DNA of 64,000 bases. Source: Dehalococcoidia bacterium. GTDB taxonomy: Bacteria; Chloroflexota; Dehalococcoidia; UBA2979. The stretch lies in assembly GCA_965262725.1 (NCBI GenBank), contig OZ253555.1, positions 288,001 to 352,000 on the forward strand, given 5' to 3'. How positions within the stretch are numbered: position 1 is the stretch's first letter; the number at the start of each line of letters is the position of its first letter. This document shows, piece by piece, positions 46,751 through 54,970 of this stretch. The position numbers were made by a program, and so were the translations under genes. The notes below the pieces were generated by a model. The model did no database searches and was not told the origin of the DNA. It saw nothing but the letters and a program-made list of their open reading frames with translations.

Positions 46751-48076
46751 TCAGGTCGGGAGCGGTATCGCCCGTAGTCGCGCGAGCGCGGCTGCCAGCT
46801 GCCCGGCCCAGGGCCAGCGCTTCGGGAGGTGCAGGGTCCACCGCCGGGCAGAGTGGGTGAGCCGTCCGGCGAGAGAGAAGTAGCGCCGCCTGAGCGTCCT
46901 GGTCGTCACGATCCCCTCGCCGAGCCCGAGGCGTGCCGTCCAGCGGGCGAGGTTGTGCGCGATCACCTGCACCGCGAGCCACGCCGCGTTCGCGGCGAAG
47001 CGGCCCGAGGGGAGATGGTTCAACCCGACGCCGTACTTGAGGTCGCGGATCGCGTTCTCGATCTCGGCGTGACGGCGATGGTCGGCCTCCAGCTCCATCA
47101 TCTCCCCCGCGCGATCGGTGATGAAGGCGTGGTAACTGTAGTTCACGAAGAGCGCGAGCTGTGAGCCGGGCGTCGGCTTGACGCGCCGCACGATGAGCCG
47201 CACCGCGGTGGCGTCCCTCGTGTGCTGGAACGGCGTGTAGGTCGTCTCGGCGACAGCGGCGCCGCCCGCCAGCCAGTACGGGATCGGCGTCCAGTCCTCT
47301 TCCGGTATCGCCTCGATCAGCCGGCGTACGTTCGGCTGCTGGCGAATGGTGATGGAGAAGCGGACATCCTGCTTGCGACAGACGGCGACGACAGCGTGGT
47401 TGTAGAAGCCGCTGTCGGCGCGCACCGTGAGCTGCCCGCTCGCCCCGGCGTCGCGCACCCGGCCCACCGTCTCACGCAGGAAGTGGGCGGCCCCCCGAGC
47501 GGTGTTGGCACGGCCCCCGCGCAGCCGGGCCATCAGCACCTCACCCGTCCCGGCCGCCACCGCGAGCAGCGGGTGATAGCCGCGCACGCCCGTGTAGCCG
47601 TGGTGCCGGGCGCCCTCTTTCGCCAGTCCGTAGGTCTCGCAGAGCGTCGAGTCGAGGTCGATCGTGAACGGTGCCGCGCCGGGTCCCGCCCCGGCCGCCC
47701 AACTGCGGGCCAGCAACTCGCGGCTGACGCGGTCGAGCTGGCGGACGTGGCCCCAGCGGAAGCTGCGCAGGAACGTCCCGAGGGTGGACGGCGCCTTCAC
47801 CGTGCAGCCGAGCACGCGCCCGGCGCCGCCTGAGCGCATGGCATCGGCGTCATCGATGCAGTCGCCGCCCGCGAGCGCCGAGGCGATGAGAGTCATCAGC
47901 TTGTCGCCGACGTTCGCCCGCCCCGCTGCGTCACCGAGGTCGAGGTGGGCGTCTGCCAGTTCACGGAGGCCGAGCCGGCCAGCGAGCGTGGCCGGGAGCA
48001 GCAGGCCCGCGTGGTCCACGAGGCGGTCGTCGTCGAAGGCGATGTGTATCCGGTCGGGGCTGCTCGTTGCTAACAT
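46751..48076 (-). CDS. IS1380 transposase (intact, 441 aa)
   Basis: Same motifs as the other IS1380 copies, uninterrupted. Confidence 0.93.
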   Translation of the reverse strand: MLATSSPDRIHIAFDDDRLVDHAGLLLPATLAGRLGLRELADAHLDLGDAAGRANVGDKLMTLIASALAGGDCIDDADAMRSGGAGRVLGCTVKAPSTLGTFLRSFRWGHVRQLDRVSRELLARSWAAGAGPGAAPFTIDLDSTLCETYGLAKEGARHHGYTGVRGYHPLLAVAAGTGEVLMARLRGGRANTARGAAHFLRETVGRVRDAGASGQLTVRADSGFYNHAVVAVCRKQDVRFSITIRQQPNVRRLIEAIPEEDWTPIPYWLAGGAAVAETTYTPFQHTRDATAVRLIVRRVKPTPGSQLALFVNYSYHAFITDRAGEMMELEADHRRHAEIENAIRDLKYGVGLNHLPSGRFAANAAWLAVQVIAHNLARWTARLGLGEGIVTTRTLRRRYFSLAGRLTHSARRWTLHLPKRWPWAGQLAAALARLRAIPLPT

Positions 48077-48249
48077 CGAATGGGTGCTCCCTGTGGCTGT
48101 GACGTGATTCGGTCAAAAACCATTGTCCCAGCTACAGCGGAGCACCCAACCCCAGCCGCTCGCGCACTCTTCTTCGGTTCGCGGTAGGGATGCCGGTTGC
48201 CCGGCACCCCCCGCACAGATCCGGACGTGCCCTCTCGGGCATCCGGCTC

Positions 48250-49578
48250 CTACCTCAAGTGCGTGACGGCAAATCGCTCCGCAGGCCACGGGTGAAGGAT
48301 GGAGATTCGGGGCCAGTGTTTCTGGCACAGGGCAAGGATGCGCTCCCACGTGAAACGGTCGCGCTGCGACCGCCGTCGGAGAACGCGCAGCCAGAGCCGC
48401 TTCACGAAACGAACAAACTGCGTGAGCGCCGGCGAGCTGGTCGGCACCGCGTAGTAGCCAAGCCACCCACGCAGTACCCGCCCCAGCCACTGCCCCGTCG
48501 TCACGGGGTTGTCGTGCATGCGCCGCCACAACTCGGCCTTGATGGCCTTCAGCGTCCGGCGCATCCGCTTCGCAACGGGCTTGCGCCCCAGCCCGAATCT
48601 CCCGTCGCGTCGGGTCCGGCAGTAGTGCGTCATGCCGAGAAAGTCGAACGTCTCCGGTCGGCCCTCCCCGCGCTTCCGCCTGTTCGCCAGCGCGAACCTG
48701 CCGAACTCAAGTAGACGGGTCTTCTCCGGGTGCAGCTCCAGCCCGTAGGCCGCGAACCGCTCCCGGAGTGCCTTCATGAACCGCACCGCATCGCTGCGGT
48801 GCTGGAACCCCAGGACGAAGTCATCGGCATACCGCACGATGTACGCCTCGCCCCGGACCTCCCGCGGTCGCCACTCGCGCGCAAACCAGTCGTCGAGCAC
48901 GTTGTGCAGGTACACGTTCGCAAGCAGCGGCGATATCGGCGCCCCCTGCGGCATCCCCCGCACGAAATCGACTTCCGGCTCCGCGTCCATGACGCCGACG
49001 CTCAGCCACTTTCGTATCAGGCGCAACACCCGCTGGTCCCCGATGCGCATCTCCAGAAACGACATCAGCCGCCCCCGGTCGATGCTGCCGAAGAACTCCC
49101 GGATGTCCACCTCGACAATCCAGCTGACCTTGCGCCGTTCGACCGCGTAGGCCAGTGCGTCCAGCGCGTCATGCGCCGAACGCCCCGGCCTGAAGCCATG
49201 CGAGAAGCCGTAGTAGCCCGACTCGTAAATCGGGTTCAAAAGATTGTCCACCACCGCCCGCTGAACGATCTTGTCCTCCAGCGAGACGATACCGAGCGGC
49301 CGTATTCCCCCGTCCGGCTTGGGTATCTCTACCCGCCTGACGGGCTTCGCCCGGTACGCTCCACGGTGTACGCGGCCATGCAGGTCGAGCAATCGCTCGT
49401 CCAGCCCGTCCCCGTATTCTCGCCACCTCACCCCGTCCACGCCCGGAGCCGCATCCCGCTTCAACGCGAGATACGCCTCCCGCAGCGCCTCCGGCGTGAT
49501 GTGGTGCAAGAGCGCGGTGAGTTTCTCTCCCGGCTTCCGTTCCACGAACTGCCGTATCCTCTCCGCTCCGGGTGACAC
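48250..49578 (-). CDS. ltrA: Group II intron RT/maturase (class E-like, no endonuclease)
   Basis: LTALLHHIT, AAPGVDG, RPLGI..LEDKIVQ, PQGAPISPLLANVYL, YADD, FDFLGMTHYC, GWLGYYAVP. Confidence 0.92.
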   Translation of the reverse strand: MSPGAERIRQFVERKPGEKLTALLHHITPEALREAYLALKRDAAPGVDGVRWREYGDGLDERLLDLHGRVHRGAYRAKPVRRVEIPKPDGGIRPLGIVSLEDKIVQRAVVDNLLNPIYESGYYGFSHGFRPGRSAHDALDALAYAVERRKVSWIVEVDIREFFGSIDRGRLMSFLEMRIGDQRVLRLIRKWLSVGVMDAEPEVDFVRGMPQGAPISPLLANVYLHNVLDDWFAREWRPREVRGEAYIVRYADDFVLGFQHRSDAVRFMKALRERFAAYGLELHPEKTRLLEFGRFALANRRKRGEGRPETFDFLGMTHYCRTRRDGRFGLGRKPVAKRMRRTLKAIKAELWRRMHDNPVTTGQWLGRVLRGWLGYYAVPTSSPALTQFVRFVKRLWLRVLRRRSQRDRFTWERILALCQKHWPRISILHPWPAERFAVTHLR

Positions 49579-49779
49579 CGCACCCCGACTCTGCGTCCGG
49601 ACCGTGCCGGTGCTTTGAGGATTCCTCTCGGTTGGGGCCCTTTGCTCCAGCGACTCCGCCGGGGCTCGCGCCCCCTTCTATGAGGGTCGTCTGATCCGCA
49701 AGGCCGACGTGGCGGCCTTCTGCGCCGTTCTACCGATCGCGCCTCCCGTCCGCAGCCCTGTGGTGGTTGTCGGTGCCGA

Positions 49780-50010
49780 TGCGAGTGGTGCCGCCGTCTT
49801 GTCCCCGGGACGTTGTGGTGACCGTGCTTCTATTCGCACTCGTCGAGGGGCCGCTCCGGGCCCGGTGCATGATGATCAGCCTGTCTCCAGGGTGTGGGCG
49901 CTGCCATCTTGTTCCCGTCCTCGTTGGGACCAGGGGGTTCCGCAGTCGCCCGCGTGTCGGCATCTCTCGTATCCTCCGAAGCCCACCGGCCGCCCGGTCG
50001 CCTCGCTCCT
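49780..50010 (-). ncRNA. Putative bridge/seekRNA of the IS110 element (ends approximate)
   Basis: Contains segments matching the target halves (AGGGGG 49932, CTTGTTC 49908) and donor-junction halves (GATGA 49871, CTTCTAT 49827). Confidence 0.7.
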
Positions 50011-50023
50011 CGCGTGCTGTCTG

Positions 50024-51115
50024 CTACGCCGCCTCGGCCGCGCGCGCGTGGCGCAACGGCTCGTAGACCTCCCCGCTCTTCCAGAGCGCAAGCATCAGCA
50101 CCGCCAGTCGCCTCGCGACCGCGACGACGGCACGCTTCTTCGCATTGCCGGCCCCCGACTCCGCGTAACGCAGCCCCCACCTGCGGAGGTCGCTGTCGGG
50201 GCCGAAGGGGCCCAGGATGTAGTGCGCGGCCTGGTTCAGCACCCGGCGCAGCGCCACGTCCCCTTCCTTCGTGATCCGCAGCTGGGGCTGCCGATCACCG
50301 GAATCGCGGCTCCGGGGCACCAGCCCCAGGTAGGGCCCCACCTCCCTGTTCTTGGGGAAGCGGGCCGGGTCCTCGATGGTGAGGATGAAGGTGAGCGAGG
50401 TGATCGGGCCGACGCCCACGATCTGCCGCAGCGCGCCGGTCTCCGCGTAGCGCTCGCACATCGCGGCGAGCTTCTTGTCGGCCTGGCGGATCTCCCCGGT
50501 CAGCTGCTCGATCTGGTGGAGCACCGGCAGCAGCGCCGGGCCCAGCTCCTCGGGGATGTGCTCTCTGACCGCGCGGTGGAAGGCCGGCGCCGTGCAGCCC
50601 GGAAGCGCCGCGCCCCACGCCTTCACCGCGCCCCGGACGTGGTTGATGAACATCGTGCGCGCCCGGACCAGCGCCTCGCGGCTGCGGAGCACCTGGAGGT
50701 CCGCCTGCGCCATGGCGCTTCGGTGCCGGATGGGGAAGAGGAGCGCCGGGTCGAATCGGCCGAGCCGTGCGAGGTGCTCGGCATCGGAGCGGTCGGTCTT
50801 GCGCTGGCTGCGCGCGATCAGCCTGACCTGCCTCGGGTTGGCGACGATCACGTCGTGACCGAGCTCCGCGAACATCCGGCTCAGCCACGGGGACCGCGGC
50901 CCCACCTCCATCACCACCCGCGCGCCCTGCAGTGGGGTGAGCGCCCGCGTGAGCGCCGCGGTCGTGGTGCGGACTCGCTCCTCCCGCACGATCTCCCCGT
51001 CGCCACCGAGGACGCAGAGGTGACTGTAGCGGTCGCTGACGTCGATGCCGACAGTCACGAGCTCCGCATCCCCCACCTTCCTGCTCTCTGTGACATCTGA
51101 TGTACGCTGTGCCAC
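50024..51115 (-). CDS. IS110 DEDD recombinase/transposase
   Basis: GIDVS, VMEVG, KTDRSDA, GVGPITS, YLGLVP...DSG...ITK.G, AVARRL; start inferred at GTG 51115. Confidence 0.92.
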   Translation of the reverse strand: MAQRTSDVTESRKVGDAELVTVGIDVSDRYSHLCVLGGDGEIVREERVRTTTAALTRALTPLQGARVVMEVGPRSPWLSRMFAELGHDVIVANPRQVRLIARSQRKTDRSDAEHLARLGRFDPALLFPIRHRSAMAQADLQVLRSREALVRARTMFINHVRGAVKAWGAALPGCTAPAFHRAVREHIPEELGPALLPVLHQIEQLTGEIRQADKKLAAMCERYAETGALRQIVGVGPITSLTFILTIEDPARFPKNREVGPYLGLVPRSRDSGDRQPQLRITKEGDVALRRVLNQAAHYILGPFGPDSDLRRWGLRYAESGAGNAKKRAVVAVARRLAVLMLALWKSGEVYEPLRHARAAEAA

Positions 51116-52623
51116 GGTCGGTCTCCTACCTCTCTCGGCTCGCCTGAGCCGTTCTCCTGGGCCACCACGTGAGCCCGTGCTTGGAGGGGAAGTATCCCCT
51201 CTGAGGAGGGGACCGACCCTCATGTCATCTTGTTCGCCGCCTTCATCGCTCGTACGGCCCCATCAGACTGCTGCGCATCGTGCATCATCGGCTACGGTTT
51301 ACGTCCCTTCCCGACGCGGTCCCGGCGTACGACTCGTCGGGACAACGCGCAGCTCTCCCAAGTCCCGGCGATAGACGTGTGTGCGTGCATGGGGTCTTCG
51401 ACACCGTGGGGCCCGACCACGACTCGCCAGTAGCGCCGTCGCCGGTATTGCCTTCGACCAATCCAAGAGCCTCGGCACCCCAAATGGCCCTTTCGATGCT
51501 CATTAGCCCCGCCCGCACACCCCGCTGCCGACGCTTCACAAGCCGCCTCGCGACGACCCGCGCACGGCTCGCGGAATGACATGAGTGGCTAGCTCTTTGC
51601 CATAGAGGACTTCCACCTCCTGCCTACTCGCCAGTTAGCCTGGCGCTCTGGATCAGGGCTAAGCGCCCTTGAACTCATGGCGCTCGCCAGGGAGACAGGC
51701 CTACCTATCGACTGGTTCGTCGCAGAATCGTCTCCGACCGTTACCAGCCACCGTGCGGGCAGTCTCAGCGCGTCAACGATCGTCAACGTGCGTGTCGATG
51801 TCCTCGTGCGGGACGTGACCCAGCTCATCGAGATGCATCTGCTTCGCACGGACGCGAAGCGGCCCGACCTGCGCGTTCCCCGCGATGTCGCGGGCGCCGA
51901 GGCGGCCGCACGCGCCGTGCGCACCCACCTCGAAGCCGACGCTGAGCACCCCATCGACCTCGCCGCGGCGGCTGAACGACTCGGCGTCTTCGCCTACTCG
52001 CTCGCGTTGCCGCAGAGCGACGTGGATGGCGGCTACGTGGCGCTCGACGACCAGCTCGGCGTCGCCCTGATCAACGGTGACCAGCCGTCGGCACGCCGCC
52101 GCTACACACTCGCTCACGAGATTGGCCATCATGTCTTCCAGGACGAGTATGCCGTTGACGTCGCCGCCACCGGCCGCTCGGAGACCGAGCGCACTATCGA
52201 TGCCTTTGCGATCCATCTGCTGTTGCCGCGCGCCACACTCGCTGACCGGTGGCGCGAGTTGGACGGCGACGATGAGCCCCGGACTGCCGCGCTCATCATC
52301 GGTGCCGAATACCGAGTCAGTTGGACAGCGCTCTGCGCGCAGCTCATCAATCTCGGCGTCGTGGAGCGATTCCGAGGCGAGATCATGCGGGAAACGACAC
52401 CGGTCGGGGGCGAGTACGCGGAGCTCGGCCTCGACATCGTCGAGGAGCTCGATGCGCCCTACGTCCCTCGCGGCGTCGCGCGCGCCGCCATCAGCGGCTA
52501 CCGCAGCCACCGCCTCGGCTTAGGACGAACCCTCGAGCTGCTCCACGGCACACTGGGTGAAGCGGACCTGCCCGACCGCCACGTCGTTCCGCTTGATGCG
52601 CTCGCCGGCGAGCTGCGTAGTCT

Positions 52624-52882
52624 GTGACGGATGTCGCGTTCGTCTTCGACGCCGGCCCGCTCAGCCACTTCGCGCGCGCGGGCCGGCTCGATGCGCTGCA
52701 CTTGATCTGCAGCGAGGCACGCCTCACGGTCACCGAGGCAGTGATCGGCGAGCTCGCCAGAGGCACCGCGACATACCCCTCGCTGCAGGACGTGATCGAG
52801 GCGGATTGACTGCAGCACGTCCGCGTGGACGGCCTCGCTGAGCTGGCAGCGTTCGCCGAGTACGCGCGGGTCCTTGGCTCCT
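52624..52882 (+). pseudogene. PIN-domain (DUF3368-like) toxin with internal TGA, truncated by IS256
   Basis: FVFDAGPLSHFARAG...V..EL; reads on past TGA 52807 as LQHVRVDGLAELAAFAEYARVLGS; GTGA overlap with the ImmA gene. Confidence 0.7.
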
Positions 52883-54970
52883 GAGGTATAGCCAGAAGTT
52901 GTGGATGAGCCAGGAGAGAGAGGCGGCGTACCCTCCCTGAGTCAACAGGAGTGGCCGGGAAGCCGGCCGGGGAGGAGTACGCCGGATGTTGAGGATAGTC
53001 CATGAGGGAGGCGAGCGGGAAGCGGGGCCGGGGACGCAGGTCGGACTGGACGAGCTCTGCCGTATGGCCGCCCAGGAGATGCTCGGGGTGGCGCTGGAGG
53101 CCGAACGGCAGGCCTACCTCGAGCGCCACGCGGGCGCGGTCGATGGAGAGGGCCGCCGCGTGGTCGTCGGCAACGGCTACGCCCGCGCGAGAGAGATCAC
53201 CACCGCCGCGGGACGGGTCGCCGTGCAGGCGCCGCGCGTCGACGACCGCCGTCCCGGCGAGCGCTACATCTCGGCGCTTCTGCCGCCCTACATGCGGCGC
53301 TCGCCCAAGGTGACCGAGGTGTTGCCGCTGCTCTACCTGCGCGGGCTCTCGACGGGCGACTTCCTGCCCGCCCTGTCGGCGTTCTTCGGCTCGGGGGCGG
53401 GGCTCTCCGCCTCGACCGTGGGGCGGCTCACGGAGGCGTGGCAGGCCGACCACGAGCGCTGGCAGCGACGCAGCCTGGCCGAGGTCGACTACGTCTACCT
53501 CTGGGCGGACGGCGTCCACTTCACCGTGCGTCTCGAGGAGGACCGGCTCTGCTGCCTGGTGCTGGTCGGGGTGCGCCCGGACGGCCGCAAGGAGCTGGTG
53601 GCCGTGCAGGACGGCTACCGTGAGGACACCCAGTCCTGGCTCGACCTGCTGCGGGACCTGCGCGAGCGGGGCATGCGCGACCCCGAGCTGGCCGTCGGCG
53701 ACGGGGCGCTCGGGTTCTGGGCGGCGCTGCGGGAGGTCTTCCCCCGGACCCGCGAGCAGCGCTGCTGGGTGCACAAGACCGCGAACGTCCTGGCGTCGCT
53801 GCCCGAGCGCGTCCAGGGGGAAGCGACGCGGGCGCTCCACGCCGTCTCCGGAGCCGCGACGCGCGCCGGGGCGCTGGATGCGGCGCGCGCCTTCGCCGGG
53901 CAGTTCGCGCAGTGGCCGAAGGCGACAGCGAAGGTCGCCGACGACCTCGAACGGCTGCTCGCGTTCCACGACTTCCCGTCCGAGCACCACGTGCACCTGC
54001 GCACCACGAGTAGGGTGAGGAGCTGGCGCGGTACGCGCTGTAGGCCGGTGGCGCTCTTGTTCCGAGCAGGTTTCCCCGCGGTGCCCAATCCCACGGCCAT
54101 GGCATATCGCCCGTTTCCAGCTCCTCCCCGTCAAACCGGACAGGCGGTTCTCCCGCATCCGGCTTACCGACGCCCTTCACCGGACGGCATTCGGTTTCAC
54201 CCGCCACGACCGGTTCGGCCGCGGTGCGACAACCCATCCACTGAGCGAGAGCAGACCGAGGCGGGTCGCATGGCGGTATGACACGCCGTACCGCAGACGT
54301 TGCCGACTGCGCCGACGCTTACCCCACCACACCACCAGCCGCAACGCGGCGTACGCACTGAGCTTGCGGAACGACTTCGCCACGTTCCCGTAACGAAAAT
54401 AGCCCGCCCAGCCGCGCAGGAGGCGGTTCACCTCCTGCACGATGCGCTCCACGCTCAACACCAACCGTGACCGCACCGTCATCTCACGGATGCGGTCACG
54501 TGCATGCTGCATCGCTCGTCGCGAGGGAAAGCGTGCAAGGAATCGGAGATTCGAACCCCGCCTAGCCCGTACCCACCGGTGTTCAAAGCCGAGGAACTCC
54601 AGCCCCTCGCCTCCTTCCGCCAGGTGCACGATGCGGGTCTTCTCCGCCTTCAGCTCCAGTCCGAGCTCGGCGACCAGCTCACGGAGCAGCGCCAGCGCCG
54701 CATCCGCTTCCCGCTGCGTTCCGCAGAGCACCACAAGGTCGTCGGCATATCGCACCAGCACTCCCCGGCCCCTCGTCTCCCATTCCCGGTCAACCCGGTG
54801 CAGATAGACGTTGGCCAGAAGCGGGGATACTACCCCGCCCTGTGGCGTACCCGTCACGCTGTGCCGCACGGCCCCGGACTCCATCACCCCGGCACGGAGC
54901 ATCGCCCGCACCAGCTTCAGGAGCTTCCGGTCATATATCCGCTCCTCCACCGCCTCCATCAACCGGTCGT

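Follow-up and report, generated by a model that had tools for sequence, protein, structure and literature searches.

The DNA examined here is a stretch of 64,000 nucleotides from a Dehalococcoidia bacterium (GenBank assembly GCA_965262725.1, contig OZ253555.1, positions 288,001 to 352,000), hereafter termed the window and numbered from its first nucleotide. Within this window, an insertion sequence (IS) encoding a DEDD transposase was found to interrupt a group II intron, at a helix assigned by its position as domain III. The element is very probably of the IS1111 type of the IS110 family, with a recombinase that is directed by a bridge RNA (or seekRNA) into the DNA of this intron domain. This reading is based on the anatomy of the element, the loop structure of its non-coding region, the covariation of guide letters with the flanks and ends of related copies, and the exclusive and repeated use of one intron site. 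The natural reprogramming apparent from comparison of related sequences is taken as the decisive evidence for the predicted role of the guides.

Guide segments and their covariation with insertion sites

A preliminary description of the window had proposed that an IS110 element with a shared CTT core carries, downstream of its transposase gene, opposite-strand matches to the two halves of its target followed by matches to the two halves of its donor. The plus-strand strings underlying this proposal were present as described (GCCCC at 49670-49674, CTT at 49675-49677, CTATG at 49678-49682, TGTCAT at 51223-51228, CTT at 51229-51231 and GTTCG at 51232-51236), as were the minus-strand target segments CCCCCT (49937-49932) and GAACAAG (49914-49908) and the donor segments TCATC (49875-49871) and ATAGAAG (49833-49827). 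The empty site rebuilt from the flanks, 16-mer GGCGAACAAGGGGGCG, was found ten times in the genome and always at the joint of the two intron halves. By contrast, the CTT core was not borne out. Because AG (CT on the plus strand) is the only sequence common to both junctions across the relatives, the core was set to AG, and the third base shared in the window copy is a coincidence. An AG core gives terminal extensions of 7 and 3 nt, the lengths typical of IS1111 elements.

Folding of the non-coding region supported the order of a target loop followed by a donor loop. In the minimum free energy (MFE) fold of positions 49800-49990, CCCCCU and GAACAAG face each other across one internal loop that is capped by a hairpin, and the GAACAAG guide extends to GAACAAGATG, which matches the left junction over 10 nt. 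The consensus fold of 14 variants retained nine basal pairs (eight unchanged in 14/14 and one with a GC-to-CG compensatory change in a single variant), the target hairpin, and a second stem, GCACC/G.GUGC, that is flanked by UCAUC and AUAGAAG. Within each loop the complement of the top strand precedes the complement of the bottom strand; the target guides are complementary to both target strands, overlap at the core and lie on the two sides of an internal loop, as in a bridge RNA or seekRNA. The chain of four ordered, core-anchored matches in the 346-nt non-coding region scored 25, and a chance origin is unlikely since the maximum among 2000 dinucleotide shuffles of the region was 24.

Related copies were collected from the same genome, from 40 relatives and by a scan of a genome collection (loci are designated L and a number), and the target loop was located in 26 loci representing 16 guide classes. 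The guide counts omit L003 and L004 (duplicates of the L001 type), L113, L117 and L118 (target loop not found) and the 5'-only fragments L007, L014, L019, L029, L039 and L042 (which lack the non-coding region); L018 and L101 have identical flanks, are probably one place, and were counted twice. Among the fragments, L007 and L019 share the left end of the window copy but have non-intron flanks and no non-coding region from which guides could be read.

By this approach, the stems were found to stay constant across the 26 loci while the guide letters vary to match the flanks and ends of each copy. At least 6 nt were shared between guide 1 and the right flank in 13/22 loci when each guide was paired with its own flank, compared to 6/330 mismatched pairings; likewise, guide 2 and the left flank shared at least 6 nt in 15/21 own pairings and in only 4/315 mismatched ones. 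Examples of the matching letters include guides AGACCCT and TCGCCAG with flanks aatcgcc-AG-ggtctat (L028), guides CGGAAGCT and CCCTCAG with flanks ctccctc-AG-cttccg (L005/L006), and guides GGAGCCTGTC and TTCTGAG with flanks (a/t)ctg-AG-acaggctcc (L018/L034). The donor guide for the right end equalled that end in 22/22 loci, tracking an A/G switch, and the guide for the left end was the complement of its end in 11/19. Metagenome contigs that deviate from the window do so at guide positions (49910-49914, 49934-49939, 49875 and 49831). Together with the folds, this covariation supports the proposed layout of a target loop followed by a putative donor loop.

The sites of the relatives were also informative. 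An Rfam search found no intron beside 17 of 20 related loci, with one nearby for L097, L103 and L112, and other guide classes aim at ordinary, non-repeated sequence (e.g., L098-L100). Of these loci, only L112 lies at the same intron site; copies at non-intron sites do occur, among relatives with other guides, and the guide pair of the window element was found only in introns. Close relatives with other guides at non-intron sites support programmability and do not refute the targeting of the intron by the window element. Two observations on individual loci are added here. L103 (1977-4088), a 90.6%-identical element with other guides, abuts the first nucleotides of an inverted intron copy, has a second intron fragment on its other side and may be a recombinant. 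L104, L106 and L108 contain the right-end motif twice, 59-322 nt apart, which points to right-end duplications, either tandem or partial.

An alternative is that the protein picks the site, for example by recognising hairpin-forming domain III DNA, and that the short RNA matches are incidental. The target does abut a palindrome, GGGGCGCGAGCCCC, and each single match is short (5-7 nt). This explanation is nevertheless contradicted by the covariation of guides with flanks, as the guides shift with the flanks across the 16 classes while the transposase stays 68-94% identical. The observed chain score was reached in 0/2000 shuffles, and reprogrammed IS1111-type elements have shown that the RNA sets the site (Siddiquee et al. 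2024, PMC11187229). Protein-only site choice thus stands next to no chance of being correct.

Several results weigh against the RNA-guided reading. The donor guides flank a conserved stem-loop; when a helix that could close the donor loop was sought, just weak, mutually exclusive candidates emerged (CCUGG/CCGGG or GUUGU/ACGAC). The region as a whole was no more stable than its shuffles (z = -1.30 and -0.79), so folding energy was dropped as support, and the stems are nearly invariant and thus provide almost no compensatory changes. The left-end donor guide was mismatched in 8/19 loci (seven with one mismatch in five, and L105 with two), and one of these mismatches is conserved throughout a subgroup. 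Target matches were poor or one-sided in L098, L102, L108, L109, L111, L116 and, on its left side, L097; these loci may be rearranged copies or have wrong end calls. The loci are kin, and hence the counts overstate the number of independent events. In L112, a related and internally deleted copy from another genome whose left end occupies the same site in an intron of 77% identity, the guides do not match the intron flank, and the copy may therefore be recombinant. For the excised circle, the end strings of the junction first proposed (TGTCAT-CTT-CTATG) are in place, but no circle-type joint was seen in the metagenome contigs. A search of the non-coding region against Rfam 15 at E values up to 1 returned no family, a result that shows only the lack of a curated model.

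Occupancy of the intron site and proposed mechanism

The guide pair of the window element is carried by four copies in the genome, which are 99.7-100% identical with identical ends, and 4/4 were found at the same intron nucleotide, in the orientation of the intron and within its third helical domain. The 3.67-Mb genome has 14 such sites, 4 occupied and 10 empty. All ten occurrences of the 12-mer CGAACAAGGGGG are inside introns, as are 10/10 of the exact empty 16-mers, and nine near-identical intron copies are still empty. In this genome the programmed target, GCGAACA-AG-GGGGCG, occurs only within domain III of group II intron DNA. Being confined to this target, the element accumulates in intron copies and always in the intron orientation. 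These results agree with the original proposal that the guides aim at a group II intron; it is the DNA of the intron, rather than its ribozyme RNA, that serves as the target.

The host introns of the four copies differ in allele, exon context and lineage. Their 5' exons are unlike, 7 differences (6 of them single-nucleotide polymorphisms) separate the 3' parts of the L003 and L004 hosts, the host of the window copy represents a third allele, and L002 resides in a divergent intron without an open reading frame (ORF), the domain V of which lies about 165 nt past the domain III site. Based on these distinct exons, alleles and lineages, the four copies represent independent insertions. They could otherwise be explained by passive spread, in which an intron already loaded with the insertion retrohomed and the repeated location reflects intron mobility instead of RNA-guided targeting. 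The identity of the L003 and L004 copies, which share the same four differences from the window copy, and the A allele common to their hosts at column 379 of the intron 5' part are in line with this view. It is contradicted by the differing host alleles, none of which can be derived from another, and the separate ORF-less lineage that hosts L002, the exact match of the guides to the site and the expectation that a 1.55-kb insertion in domain III would hinder splicing all speak against it as well. Passive spread is thus considered very improbable.

Of the ORF-less intron derivative (G000:C1:1953015-1957613; L002, L065), the genome holds several copies that are about 94% identical. In these copies the site reads GAACAAAGAGGAG, which departs from the 16-mer by three mismatches, and is empty; two of them, inverted relative to one another, flank the L002 copy. 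Two further introns, otherwise near-identical and empty at the IS1111 site, are interrupted by other insertions, one of about 2.2 kb (G000:C1:1522773-1524988) and one of about 1.3 kb (1876116-1877443), which lie at positions 438-467 of the 3' part and within the reverse-transcriptase region.

Beyond this genome, the guide pair was absent from the 400 others searched in the class (found in 1/401). A metagenome scan for the 38-nt target loop gave no matches, and a scan for the intron/IS junction gave 22, all by chance and none continuing as the element. Metagenome contigs join 49674 to 51229, as at an empty site, in 3/4 runs; as the other intron copies would give rise to such joints in any case, they carry no information on excision.

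We propose that RNA-guided insertion would proceed as follows. The bridge (seek) RNA would be transcribed from the 346-nt region 3' of the transposase gene, processed, and would direct the DEDD/serine recombinase, with both transposase and RNA expressed from an excised circle. The predicted right end-left end (RE-LE) junction of this circle is ...CATAGA-AG-ATGACATG.... At synapsis, each side of the target loop would pair with one strand of the intron DNA at the AG core, the 5' side (CCCCCU) with the top strand right of the core and the 3' side (GAACAAG) with the bottom strand left of it. The donor part would pair with the abutted ends, UCAUC with the left end and AUAGAAG with the right end, and the recombinase would exchange strands at the core. 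Loss of intron splicing or mobility after the insertion is plausible.

In our view, the multicopy intron serves as a harmless landing site, and its inactivation would be a by-product. Targeting could instead be purposeful, with the element, or the host by means of it, limiting intron proliferation through ribozyme knock-out as a selected anti-intron function. Occupancy of 4/14 sites, the location of the hit in a catalytic-effector domain rather than the tolerant domain IV, and a sister variant that strikes the terminal repeat of an IS21-family element would suit such a role. Its weakness is that nine near-identical introns stay empty, that other guide classes (L098-L100) target ordinary non-repeated sequence, that the guide pair was found in just one of the 401 genomes searched in the class and that nothing shows a benefit to the host; a selected function is therefore quite unlikely. 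A broader version, in which the lineage repeatedly re-aims its guides at other mobile elements and acts as a programmable hyperparasite that knocks out rivals and measurably limits their spread, is doubtful.

Anatomy of the element and of its host intron

The features of the element, its predicted RNA and the host intron are compiled in Table 1.

Table 1. Coordinates of the features in the window; bridge/seekRNA features are predictions, and domain III is named by position.
Feature	Position	Strand	Details
Host group II intron	48175..51648	-	Ends by copy comparison; about 1.92 kb when the insertion sequence is not counted; first letters GAGCG, at about 51648
Intron reverse transcriptase/maturase ORF	48250..49578	-	Intact, 442 aa; Pfam RVT_1
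5' half of domain III, to insertion point	51232..51261	-	Starts GGGGCC, ends GGCGGCGAAC; consensus fold of four lineages
3' half of domain III	49634..49674	-	Terminal hairpin GGGGC-GCGA-GCCCC to closing GGCCCC; consensus fold
Insertion sequence	49675..51231	-	1557 bp as drawn, with AAG at both ends and the core counted twice
DEDD transposase gene	50024..51115	-	Start uncertain
Left subterminal inverted repeat	51214..51223	-	ATGAGGGTCG, read from sequence; preceded by 7-nt extension AGATGAC (AG core counted)
Right subterminal inverted repeat	49680..49689	+	ATGAGGGTCG, read from sequence; 3-nt extension (AGA) outside, then AG core
3' non-coding region encoding predicted bridge/seekRNA	49678..50023	-	3' of stop codon; conserved in relatives save guide positions
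Target-binding loop	49896..49951	-	MFE fold, 14-variant consensus fold and guide/flank covariation
Target loop basal stem	49951-49942 with 49904-49896	-	GGGCGACUGC paired with GCAGCGCCC; fold
Target guide 1	49941-49931	-	Contains CCCCCU
Target loop hairpin	49930-49917	-	GUCCCAACGAGGAC; fold
Target guide 2	49916-49905	-	Contains GAACAAG, then AUG
Donor-binding part	49827..49875	-	Consensus fold and guide/end matches
Donor guide UCAUC	49875-49871	-	Pairs with left end
Donor stem-loop	49868-49864 to 49841-49836	-	GCACC to GAGUGC; consensus fold
Donor guide AUAGAAG	49833-49827	-	Pairs with right end

The element proper is about 1555 bp, one copy of the AG core being that of the target. Its transposase could start at a GTG at 51115 (363 aa) or at an ATG at 51223 that gives the longest frame (399 aa). 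The protein has the N-terminal DEDD/RuvC-like domain and the C-terminal Transposase_20 domain of the IS110 family, with matches to PF01548 (DEDD_Tnp_IS110; 69.9 bits, E = 2.7e-19), PF02371 (Transposase_20; 65.2 bits, E = 7.2e-18) and NCBIfam NF033542, 'IS110 family RNA-guided transposase' (217.1 bits, cut-off 140). A sigma-70 promoter scan of 49600-51300 found none.

Assignment to a subgroup was made from the ends, the non-coding regions and the C-terminus. IS1111 elements have subterminal inverted repeats, usually of 11-13 bp (range 7-17 bp), asymmetric terminal extensions of 7 nt on the left and 3 nt on the right, and a larger non-coding stretch downstream of the transposase gene (PMC11187229; Durrant et al. 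2024, PMC11208160), and the C-terminal motif GL-P----S(t)G is given for the group in PMC11187229. The window element has 10-bp subterminal repeats at both ends with extensions of 7 and 3 nt, 346 nt of non-coding sequence 3' of the transposase gene compared to about 115 nt or fewer 5' of it, and the sequence GLVPRSRDSG in its translation, corresponding to the C-terminal motif. Thus, by its repeats, 3' non-coding region and motif, the element is assigned from its sequence to the IS1111 subgroup; the earlier designation as IS110 holds for the broad family in the ISfinder sense and not for IS110 proper.

The host was recognised as a group II intron by RNA motifs of domain I (RF02005, 51392-51613, 170 bits) and domain V/VI (RF00029, 48177-48251, 39.9 bits, which is 0.1 under the gathering score of 40), together with an intron-type reverse transcriptase whose ORF matched TIGR04416 with 326.9 bits (cut-off 300). 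A consensus fold of four intron lineages placed the insertion in the third helical domain, which has a basal stem GGGGCC/GGCCCC with two compensatory pairs and has a branched, domain II-like structure on one side and domain IV, which bears the ORF, on the other. The insertion site is the internal loop immediately 5' of the terminal hairpin GGGGC-GCGA-GCCCC. The name domain III is assigned to this helix by its position in the modelled fold and the two compensatory pairs rather than by a curated model of the intron.

By comparison of copies the intron starts with GAGCG; the usual 5' consensus of group II introns is GUGYG. Whereas the wider exons differ between copies, the 12 nt upstream of the intron are semi-conserved. 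In many intron copies, the 3' exon consists of a repeat about 95 nt long (...gggtgctccgctgtagctgggacaatggttttt), which is found in the window at 48100-48170 and about 1138-1231 and at 10 or more further places in the same genome. As the 3' exon is itself repeated, the homing site of the intron appears to be a dispersed repeat.

Relation to known systems and neighbouring mobile elements

Among the closest known systems are the IS1111 elements with a seekRNA (ISEc11, ISKpn4, ISPst6 and ISPa11; PMC11187229), with which the window element shares the DEDD transposase, the subterminal repeats with 7- and 3-nt extensions, the non-coding region 3' of the gene and a guide order in which the top-strand complement is 5' of the bottom-strand complement and overlaps it at the insertion point; there too, close relatives are redirected naturally through replaced guide letters. 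The window element differs from them in host lineage, with relatives in metagenome-assembled genomes of Dehalococcoidia and a genome of 70.6% GC, and in target, which here is a group II intron domain, known from sequence alone, as compared to their attC, repetitive extragenic palindromic (REP) or short linear targets.

The bridge RNA of IS621 has the layout that is predicted here, a target loop followed by a donor loop, each part of which reads both strands around a 2-nt core (PMC11208160; Hiraizumi et al. 2024, PMC11208158), and AG of the window element is CT, the core of IS621, on the opposite strand. IS621 differs in that it belongs to the IS110 group, has subterminal repeats of 2-3 bp and encodes its RNA upstream of the gene, within the left end, whereas the RNA of the window element would be in the right end. 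Guide 2 continues past the core as AU(G), which matches the donor left end and could, by analogy with IS621 (PMC11208158), tentatively be viewed as a handshake guide; L105 covaries in this respect, while L104 and L106 do not and count against that view.

Specific landing in another mobile element and in one orientation is also a trait of IS4321/IS5075 and the IS1111-attC group (Partridge & Hall 2003; Post & Hall 2009), the targets of which are, unlike that of the window element, Tn21-family terminal repeats or integron attC sites. Known targets of IS1111 elements overall are REP sequences, attC sites and transposon terminal repeats (PMC11187229, PMC11208160). The mechanism and layout were already published in 2024, and any novelty would be confined to the target, a retroelement ribozyme gene. 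A conserved domain of such a ribozyme appears to be a new class of landing site. Full-text literature searches on IS110/IS1111 and group II introns gave no report of such targeting, though the supplementary target lists of PMC11208160 and PMC11187229 could hold one, and the single co-mention of the two was unrelated.

The element is of use as a natural example in which four bridge/seekRNA guide segments are legible directly in the DNA, and the 16 guide classes form a ladder of naturally reprogrammed close variants by which the guides can be checked, within an uncultured lineage of high GC content that is remote from the model systems. It is a case of an RNA-dependent mobile element that lives on a second such element. 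For the purposes of engineering, the series of variants marks which positions of an IS1111-type RNA are free and which are fixed.

Other mobile elements were noted around the element and its relatives. The sister variant L028 (G003:C2), 80% identical and with the guides given above, is inserted about 12 nt into the terminal repeat of an element of the IS21 family that encodes IstA (rve and Mu-transposase C domains) and IstB. A copy of the same IS21-family element is present in the genome of the window at G000:C1:1708744-1711347, between L005 and L006, where it interrupts a degenerate IS1111 element copy and is flanked by a 5-bp AGCTG duplication. The neighbourhood in the window is rich in mobile elements, with a DDE_Tnp_1_4 transposase directly downstream of the intron (46751-48076, minus strand) and a Mutator-family transposase at 52986-54281 (plus strand). 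On the other strand, a peptidase M78 (IrrE-like) ORF (51677-52627) begins at a distance of about 30 nt from the 5' end of the intron.

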